DNA of 64,000 nucleotides, taken from the NCBI RefSeq assembly GCF_024502345.1, contig NZ_JALDNN010000001.1; one strand, 5' to 3'. The first letter of the stretch is position 1. Every line of letters starts with the position of its first letter. A model generated the notes under the pieces. The model had not been told where the DNA came from and ran no database searches. It saw nothing but the letters and a program-made list of their open reading frames with translations. Positions 15,537 through 15,756 of the stretch are shown here, piece after piece. The position numbers and the translations under genes are program-made. The DNA comes from Escherichia coli. Its GTDB lineage: Bacteria; Pseudomonadota; Gammaproteobacteria; Enterobacterales; Enterobacteriaceae.

Positions 15537-15570
15537 GTCAGATGACAAAGTACAAAAGTGCTCAGACAGT

Positions 15571-15672
15571 CCCCTCGCCCCTTTGGAGAGAGGGTTAGGG
15601 TGAGGGGAACAGGCCGGCACTGGCGCGAATATTTACCCTCACCCCGGCCCTCTCCCTGAAAGGGCGAGGGGA
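15571..15672. repeat. pair of inverted ~36-bp GC-rich repeats (REP/BIME-like palindromic element)
   Basis: CCCCTCGCCCCTTTGGAGAGAGGGTTAGGGTGAGGG at 15571-15606 and its near reverse complement CCCTCACCCCGGCCCTCTCCCTGAAAGGGCGAGGGG at 15637-15672. Confidence 0.6.
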
Positions 15673-15756
15673 AAAGCGTGCCAACATTGAAGATTGAGCC
15701 AGTTTGTTAGCAATCTCAAAGATACGTCAACGAATTAATTTTTCTCGGAAAAACAA

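Follow-up and report, generated by a model that had tools for sequence, protein, structure and literature searches.

A head-to-head pair of BoxC repeats, identified by sequence, in the gcvP-ygfF spacer of Escherichia coli

The repeat first named BoxC (Bergler 1992; see also Bachellier 1999), and first described at the fabI/envM locus, was later called PIT (Hoyne & Maher 2000, 2002) and is the element behind the TMECO motif (PMC4666352); it also appears among the known E. coli stem-loop repeat families in Petrillo et al. 2008 (PMC2267715). Holder et al. 2015 found 23 copies in K-12, all of them intergenic, and five inverted K-12 pairs, each made of one type A and one type B unit, and reported excess variability around TMECO sites (PMC4666352); for Enterobacter asburiae LF7a they give 143 copies. 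The TMECO pattern of Holder 2015 is CCCTCNCCC-N3-6-GGGNGAGGG-N3-GGGNGAGGG, a C-rich block followed by two G-rich blocks. Kaplan et al. 2016 rediscovered the BoxC sequences as the G-quadruplex (G4) motifs HPG1 and HPG2, and their Table 1 places HPG1 #33 and HPG2 #32 between ygfF and gcvP on opposite strands (PMC5100583). The five inverted pairs of Holder correspond to paired loci of this table, gcvP-ygfF included. According to published CD and NMR, consensus BoxC oligonucleotides form an intrastrand purine-motif triplex as single strands; in vivo, the triplex was not detected by DMS footprinting and duplex was seen. PIT had neither promoter nor terminator activity and did not block polymerase in vivo in the work of Hoyne & Maher 2002, as far as it is summarised in PMC4666352.

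The window analysed here, 64,000 nucleotides of an E. coli contig to which positions refer unless an L-numbered locus is named, carries such a pair. By its sequence, the palindrome between gcvP and ygfF is a head-to-head BoxC pair, type A (+ strand) with type B (- strand), and the element as well as this exact locus are already known, having been published under the four names BoxC, PIT, TMECO and HPG1/HPG2. Compared with BoxC/PIT/TMECO nothing essential differs: the three-block pattern, the A (TTA) and B (CCG) types, the intergenic position, the copy number of about 20, the inverted A+B arrangement and the strain-variable surroundings are alike, and the deviations are a G->A exchange in unit A (a "mutated TMECO" in the terms of Holder) and a G-run of unit B that is one base shorter. 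HPG1/HPG2 (PMC5100583) are the same sequences under another name, and the ygfF-gcvP pair is named there, but unit A of the window no longer has four runs of three or more Gs, and the switch function proposed by Kaplan is a hypothesis.

Two other classes of repeats resemble the pair. In common with REP/BIME elements, it is a GC-rich imperfect palindrome in a post-terminator slot, forms a cluster of inverted units and is present or absent between strains; however, the BoxC sequence is unrelated, contains no REP consensus and no IHF (RIP/RIB) site, is found in about 20 copies instead of several hundred, and no association with a RAYT transposase is known. In common with MITEs (e.g. ERIC/IRU, RU-1, Correia), it has a length of ~130 bp, terminal inverted repeats, a long hairpin, an intergenic position and multiple copies, but the module is without a recognised target-site duplication or cognate transposase, and single BoxC units are commoner than pairs.

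Anatomy of the pair and the BoxC family

The earlier note had described a large imperfect palindrome downstream of the gcvP terminator, with two GC-rich units at 15571-15606 and 15637-15672 about 30 bp apart, and had called it more elaborate than a simple REP. A repeat search returned essentially these arms, at 15570-15609 and 15633-15672 (40 nt each, 80% complementary, 23 nt apart), and each arm has a short inverted repeat of its own (15570-15580 / 15598-15608, 91%). The palindrome motif was found once in the window, with a chance expectation of 0.00. It is intergenic, lying between the gcvP stop at 15491 and the ygfF start at 15757, a spacer of 265 bp in E. coli, and it indeed follows a terminator hairpin; paired three-block BoxC units are, likewise, more elaborate than a REP. 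The features of the locus are, in order:

12618-15491, + strand: gcvP coding sequence, a 957-aa ORF annotated as gcvP in matching E. coli records, with the stop codon TAA at 15489-15491
15514-15535, + strand: intrinsic terminator of gcvP, hairpin AAAGGCGC-TTCG-GCGCCTTT plus T-run (RNA fold -12.7 kcal/mol)
15544-15571, + strand: left flank of unit A (ATGAC...AAAGYGCWC..CAG), part of the full-length BoxC unit according to alignments of composite and single copies
15570-15672, no strand: whole imperfect palindrome, from repeat search and folds
15572-15607, + strand: BoxC/TMECO unit A, type A (TTA loop), in the order CCCTCGCCC-CTTTG-GAGAGAGGG-TTA-GGGTGAGGG; pattern match with one mismatch and alignment to K-12 members including the fabI copy
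15572-15580, + strand: unit A C-block CCCTCGCCC
15581-15585, + strand: unit A loop CTTTG
15586-15594, + strand: unit A G-block 1 GAGAGAGGG (GGGAGAGGG in the other E. coli strains compared)
15595-15597, + strand: unit A loop TTA
15598-15607, + strand: unit A G-block 2 GGGTGAGGG(G)
15608-15635, no strand: inter-core spacer, two abutted tails of ~14 nt (AACAGGCCGGCAC / T / GGCGCGAATATTTA), from alignments
15636-15670, - strand: BoxC/TMECO unit B, type B (CCG loop), CCCTCGCCC-TTTCA-GGGAGAGGG-CCG-GGGTGAGGG; exact TMECO pattern match
15671-15720, no strand: right flank, from megablast and alignment
15757-16500, + strand: ygfF (SDR family oxidoreductase), ATG at 15757, a 247-aa ORF with annotation
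16557-18014, - strand: bglA, from the ORF list and the annotation of matching records

Unit B matches the TMECO pattern exactly, with 0.00 matches expected by chance in the window, and unit A (15572-15606) matches it with one mismatch; the orthologous unit A of K-12 is an exact match. One type A and one type B unit on opposite strands is the paired form described by Holder. Eighteen units from 10 loci, including the fabI (envM) locus, could be aligned, and their cores are near-identical, with flanks and tails common to the members of each type. Alignment of single and paired copies further revealed that full BoxC units are longer than the core of 35-37 nt: type A units have a common left flank of ~16-28 nt and a right tail AACAGGCC.GCAC, and type B units a common T-rich left flank and a right tail TAAATATTCGCGCC or CATCAGCGCGCAC. 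In the window, the left flank of unit A at 15544-15571 is in part common to type A copies, and 15671-15684 corresponds to the T-rich/GCAC flank typical of type B. The tails that abut in the inter-core spacer recur at two loci with a single unit, adk-hemH for type A and ilvC-ppiC for type B. Both deviations of the window, the G->A exchange at 15587 in unit A and the G-run near 15666-15670 in unit B that is one base shorter, were found in none of the four other E. coli strains aligned. In E. coli LD26-1 (locus L097), unit A has a 6-bp deletion (AGGGTT) between the G-blocks, relative to 15591-15596, which looks like slippage between short direct repeats of the unit.

Of 5426 complete E. coli genomes, 5407 were hit in a blastn search with 15560-15685; the 82,024 places amount to between 1 and 29 per genome (median 17). 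The BoxC family is dispersed through E. coli, at about 17 places in a genome, and strictly intergenic. The genome-wide repeat family that the earlier note had wanted defined is therefore real, and its own objection, a unit that is unique and unconserved, falls away because the unit belongs to this family; at the gcvP-ygfF locus itself, the spacer is present at ≥97% identity in 3026 of the 5426 genomes. In 50,697 phage records there were three partial matches, and most full-length matches in plasmid records were to megabase-sized records labelled plasmids, so that the element is rare on true plasmids. Matches of 85% in the Campylobacter phages A18a and A11a (MG065686.1, MG065691.1), covering query bases 2-66 at three places per record, were unexpected and may come from contaminating or chimeric sequence.

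The folding energies, whose calculation the earlier note had proposed as a check, are far below those of shuffled sequences. For 15566-15676 (111 nt) the RNA fold amounted to -70.6 kcal/mol, compared with -43.2 +/- 3.3 kcal/mol for shuffles (z -8.2), and the opposite strand gave -71.8 kcal/mol (z -7.3). As single-stranded DNA, the same segment folded with -34.9 kcal/mol (z -6.0), and none of 200 shuffles equalled the RNA or the DNA value. The arms alone fold weakly as DNA, with -8.4 to -10.1 kcal/mol and z-values of -1.0 to -2.5. A variable stem position in the C-block (G or T) differs between composite copies at different loci without a coordinated change in the two arms, and since compensatory change is missing, the stem of ~34 bp looks like a by-product of two inverted related units and not like a separately selected structure.

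The A+B arrangement is not confined to the gcvP-ygfF spacer. A module of ~133 bp with the same architecture is found at alx-sstT and fepB-entC in K-12 and at yijF-gldA in strain ETEC4077, and the inter-core spacer of 28-29 nt is conserved at the four loci. By megablast, 15554-15720 is 86.9% identical to the yijF-gldA spacer of ETEC4077, the homology extending to about 15720. All A+B modules fold to a hairpin of about 34 bp, with -66 to -77 kcal/mol as RNA. At yijF-gldA, ETEC4077 has a BoxC A+B module (L009 1175-1368) where K-12 has a BIME of two REPs (L012 1265-1400); the two alleles share both junctions, of which the right-hand one adjoins the terminator hairpin of gldA.

History of the gcvP-ygfF junction

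The gcvP terminator was missed by the consensus terminator scanner (15400-15900); we call it because of its fold and because the hairpin is also present 3' of gcvP in Kluyvera, Klebsiella, Kosakonia and Citrobacter. When species-representative genomes were scanned with YgfF, at least 80 loci (L013-L092) came up, and among the matches listed no relative of Escherichia was closer than 84%. Among these matches, more than 60 other Enterobacterales have gcvP immediately 5' of ygfF, e.g. Phytobacter, Klebsiella, Enterobacter, Citrobacter, Kluyvera, Pantoea and Erwinia, often with bglA downstream, and no TMECO was found in the gcvP-ygfF spacer of any of these loci. Ten of the spacers were read; they are 58-168 bp long, mostly 58-101 bp, and the Shine-Dalgarno sequence and ATG of ygfF follow the T-run of the gcvP terminator by about 10-20 nt (e.g. 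L021 1438-1500, L017, L048). Comparison with these spacers shows the BoxC module of E. coli to lie within an insertion of ~200 bp between the terminator T-run and the ribosome-binding site of ygfF. A gap of 10-20 nt is too short to hold a promoter for ygfF alone, suggesting that the gene is, in other Enterobacteriaceae, normally expressed by read-through of the terminator or from a promoter inside gcvP.

In E. coli, the arrangement gcvP-BoxC-ygfF-bglA was found in 3051 of 5426 complete genomes. About 2,375 of the 5,426 genomes (~44%), including O157:H7 and ST131, have neither the pair nor ygfF and contain instead an unrelated, REP-containing gcvP-bglA spacer of 124 bp, with a left breakpoint exactly after the gcvP terminator. 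The segment 15536-16556 (~1 kb, from the end of the gcvP terminator to the bglA stop) comprises the BoxC pair and ygfF, which are present or absent together. The allele without ygfF is derived, because the outgroup genera have ygfF; the association of the repeat with the loss of ygfF is a correlation. Among strains with ygfF the spacer is about 99% conserved, even in one strain with flanks of no more than 95% identity, and this degree of conservation could reflect constraint.

The spacer on the other side of ygfF is variable as well. Between the convergent stop codons of ygfF and bglA the window has a REP-like hairpin (CCGGATGCAA...TTGCATCCGG) at 16519-16545, and in other genera this spacer (L018, L020, L021, L023, L027, L030, L032, L036, L042 and L071, at about 2240-2540) contains REP-like hairpins, a single BoxC, outward B+A pairs or, in Phytobacter, collapsed hairpins of BoxC halves. 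In Enterobacteriaceae bacterium RIT714 (L071 2283-2487), a type B and a type A BoxC flank a tandem array of 26 bp in 7.9 copies (consensus GAGGGAGAAACCAGACGGTTCCCTGC), whose repeated unit resembles a BoxC end joined to the beginning of the following BoxC; L032 has a larger duplication of this kind. From its contents, the ygfF-bglA spacer appears to be a recurrent landing and turnover site for the BoxC and REP families. The gcvP-ygfF spacer itself contains no tandem repeats.

Explanations for the pair

Taking these data together, the two full-length head-to-head BoxC units are probably a structure-prone passenger repeat, selfish or neutral, and not a dedicated regulator of gcvP or ygfF. The identity of the pair, its insertion and its polymorphism are observed; from there we infer passenger status. 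Signs of regulation did not turn up in the element, be it a promoter or terminator consensus, an IHF site, an Rfam family or a credible ORF. The A+B pair would have arrived at gcvP-ygfF as a module. Whenever the DNA is transiently single-stranded, a BoxC unit could fold to a hairpin or an intrastrand triplex and the pair to a hairpin of ~34 bp or a cruciform, and the chief consequence of such non-B structure would be slippage in replication or faulty repair, from which local indels and allele replacement would follow. Non-B structure would, we infer, cause the local instability, the signs of which are the presence or absence of ygfF and the pair, the exchange of BoxC and BIME at yijF-gldA and the 6-bp deletion in LD26-1. 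This polymorphism fits the variability that Holder described in the surroundings of TMECO.

An alternative is that the pair is itself a non-autonomous mobile module, MITE-like, with the BoxC units as terminal inverted repeats, which an enzyme moves into the post-terminator slots also used by REP/BIME. The identical architecture of ~133 bp with its 28-29-nt spacer at no fewer than four unlinked loci is consistent with such a module, as are the insertion relative to the outgroups, the alleles with and without the pair or with BoxC in place of REP at common junctions, and the independent BoxC copies in the ygfF-bglA spacer of several other genera. Of the hallmarks of a MITE, inverted repeats and filled and empty alleles are present, but a target-site duplication was not recognised at gcvP-ygfF or yijF-gldA, where the boundaries are blurred by flanking homology. 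Furthermore, the homology at yijF-gldA reaches past the repeat, so that recombination or gene conversion fits better than precise transposition. Phages hardly ever carry the element and true plasmids seldom do, no transposase is known to go with it and most BoxC copies are at fixed loci across strains; we therefore regard a mobile module as possible, though unlikely. Equally tentative is a wider proposal that builds on it, namely that the two units are no chance neighbours but a discrete A+B module, linked through their tails, which has spread whole to four loci or more (gcvP-ygfF, alx-sstT, fepB-entC and yijF-gldA) in competition with REP/BIME for post-terminator slots, that its insertion cut ygfF off from read-through out of gcv and so prepared the gene's loss from ~44% of E. 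coli, and that BoxC is MITE-like; we doubt that this holds as a whole.

At the level of RNA, the hairpin of ~34 bp in gcvP read-through transcripts might act as a barrier to 3' exonucleases, as a target of RNase III or as an insulator that tunes read-through into ygfF. The ancestral place of ygfF right behind the gcvP terminator, with its Shine-Dalgarno sequence and ATG following closely in other Enterobacteriaceae, makes this plausible; the hairpin is very stable on either strand, and a scan of 15400-15900, which returned neither sigma70 promoters nor terminators, gave no consensus promoter in the stretch from the element to ygfF. The element, however, follows a conserved terminator, and no positive evidence was obtained for any function that the earlier note had envisaged, whether mRNA stabiliser, gyrase or IHF target, or insulator. 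The pair is not an intrinsic terminator either, since the + strand continues with AAAAGCG, there is no U-tract and none was called; PIT had no terminator activity in the published tests, as summarised, and BoxC copies are without orientation or position bias relative to genes. Rfam, searched at a permissive E-value, gave nothing at the gathering threshold, the best match having 31 bits compared with a gathering score of 77.5, and the sub-threshold matches (mostly eukaryotic miRNA precursors) were discarded as generic hairpin resemblance. Six small ORFs of 20-35 aa in the spacer, being low-complexity translations of the repeat or overlapping it, were not credible. An insulator-like effect of the pair on read-through into ygfF, also raised in the earlier note, is conceivable, and a function at the RNA level as such seems rather improbable to us.

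A third proposal starts from DNA structure: a switch between G4, hairpin and duplex (Kaplan 2016), or an intrastrand triplex, would regulate initiation at a ygfF promoter. By the rule of four runs of three or more Gs with loops of 1-7 nt, a G4 scan found one canonical motif in the element, in unit B on the - strand (15636-15656), which is exactly the HPG2 21-mer of Kaplan 2016; it is one of only two in the window, the other being GGGGCTGGGCCAGCAGGGTTAGGG at 31553-31576 on the + strand. Conformers dependent on K+ and Mg2+ have been published on the basis of CD, and in K-12 in vitro genomic SELEX with purified enzyme placed peaks of the sigma70 and the sigma54 RNA polymerase holoenzyme in the ygfF-gcvP spacer (PMC3946193, PMC8743547). 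In K-12 both units are G4 motifs by this rule, but in the window unit A is not, since the A at 15587 removes its motif and leaves unit B as the only one that qualifies; the same exchange would disrupt one triad of unit A in a triplex. Moreover, NMR supports the triplex and not the G4, DMS footprinting in vivo gave duplex, the distance to neighbouring genes ranges from 10 to 310 nt across the family and a consensus promoter is missing. SELEX peaks of sigma70 were also reported in the BoxC spacers hrpB-mrcB, adk-hemH, fepB-entC and alx-sstT, and the holoenzyme peaks, which may stem from BoxC DNA or from ordinary promoters close by, are too unspecific to alter the ranking of the explanations. A search for the sigma54 consensus, prompted by the RpoN SELEX peak, gave a site at 15668-15683 (- strand) with three mismatches, which was rejected because the window contains 105 such matches compared with 127 expected. 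A structural switch at ygfF is very unlikely.

The earlier note had also suggested a BIME-like target of gyrase or IHF. Such a platform, be it for these proteins or for DNA polymerase I, is hardly credible: the pair has an intergenic post-terminator place as many BIMEs do, and REP/BIME fill the slot in alternative alleles, but 15540-15756 contains no REP consensus and none of the three matches to the IHF consensus (WATCAANNNNTTR) in the window, a number not above chance, the sequence is unrelated to the REPs of the alternative alleles and fits the BoxC/PIT/TMECO pattern instead, and Kaplan 2016 found no known transcription-factor motif.

Meaning for E. coli and the BoxC family

The gain from this analysis is a correct label, which should keep the pair from being taken for a BIME or a novel regulator. 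Mildly new are only the copying at the level of the module, the recognition that the gcvP-ygfF junction changed by insertion, and the slots that BoxC has in common with REP/BIME. If module copying and the uncoupling of ygfF were true, BoxC would be a MITE-like mobile element that some enzyme mobilises. For the locus itself, a history emerges in which a repeat-bearing insertion entered an old, compact gcvP-ygfF junction and the segment was lost by nearly half of E. coli. The gcvP-ygfF locus could, therefore, be a simple test case for the function of BoxC and for the mechanism by which it spreads.
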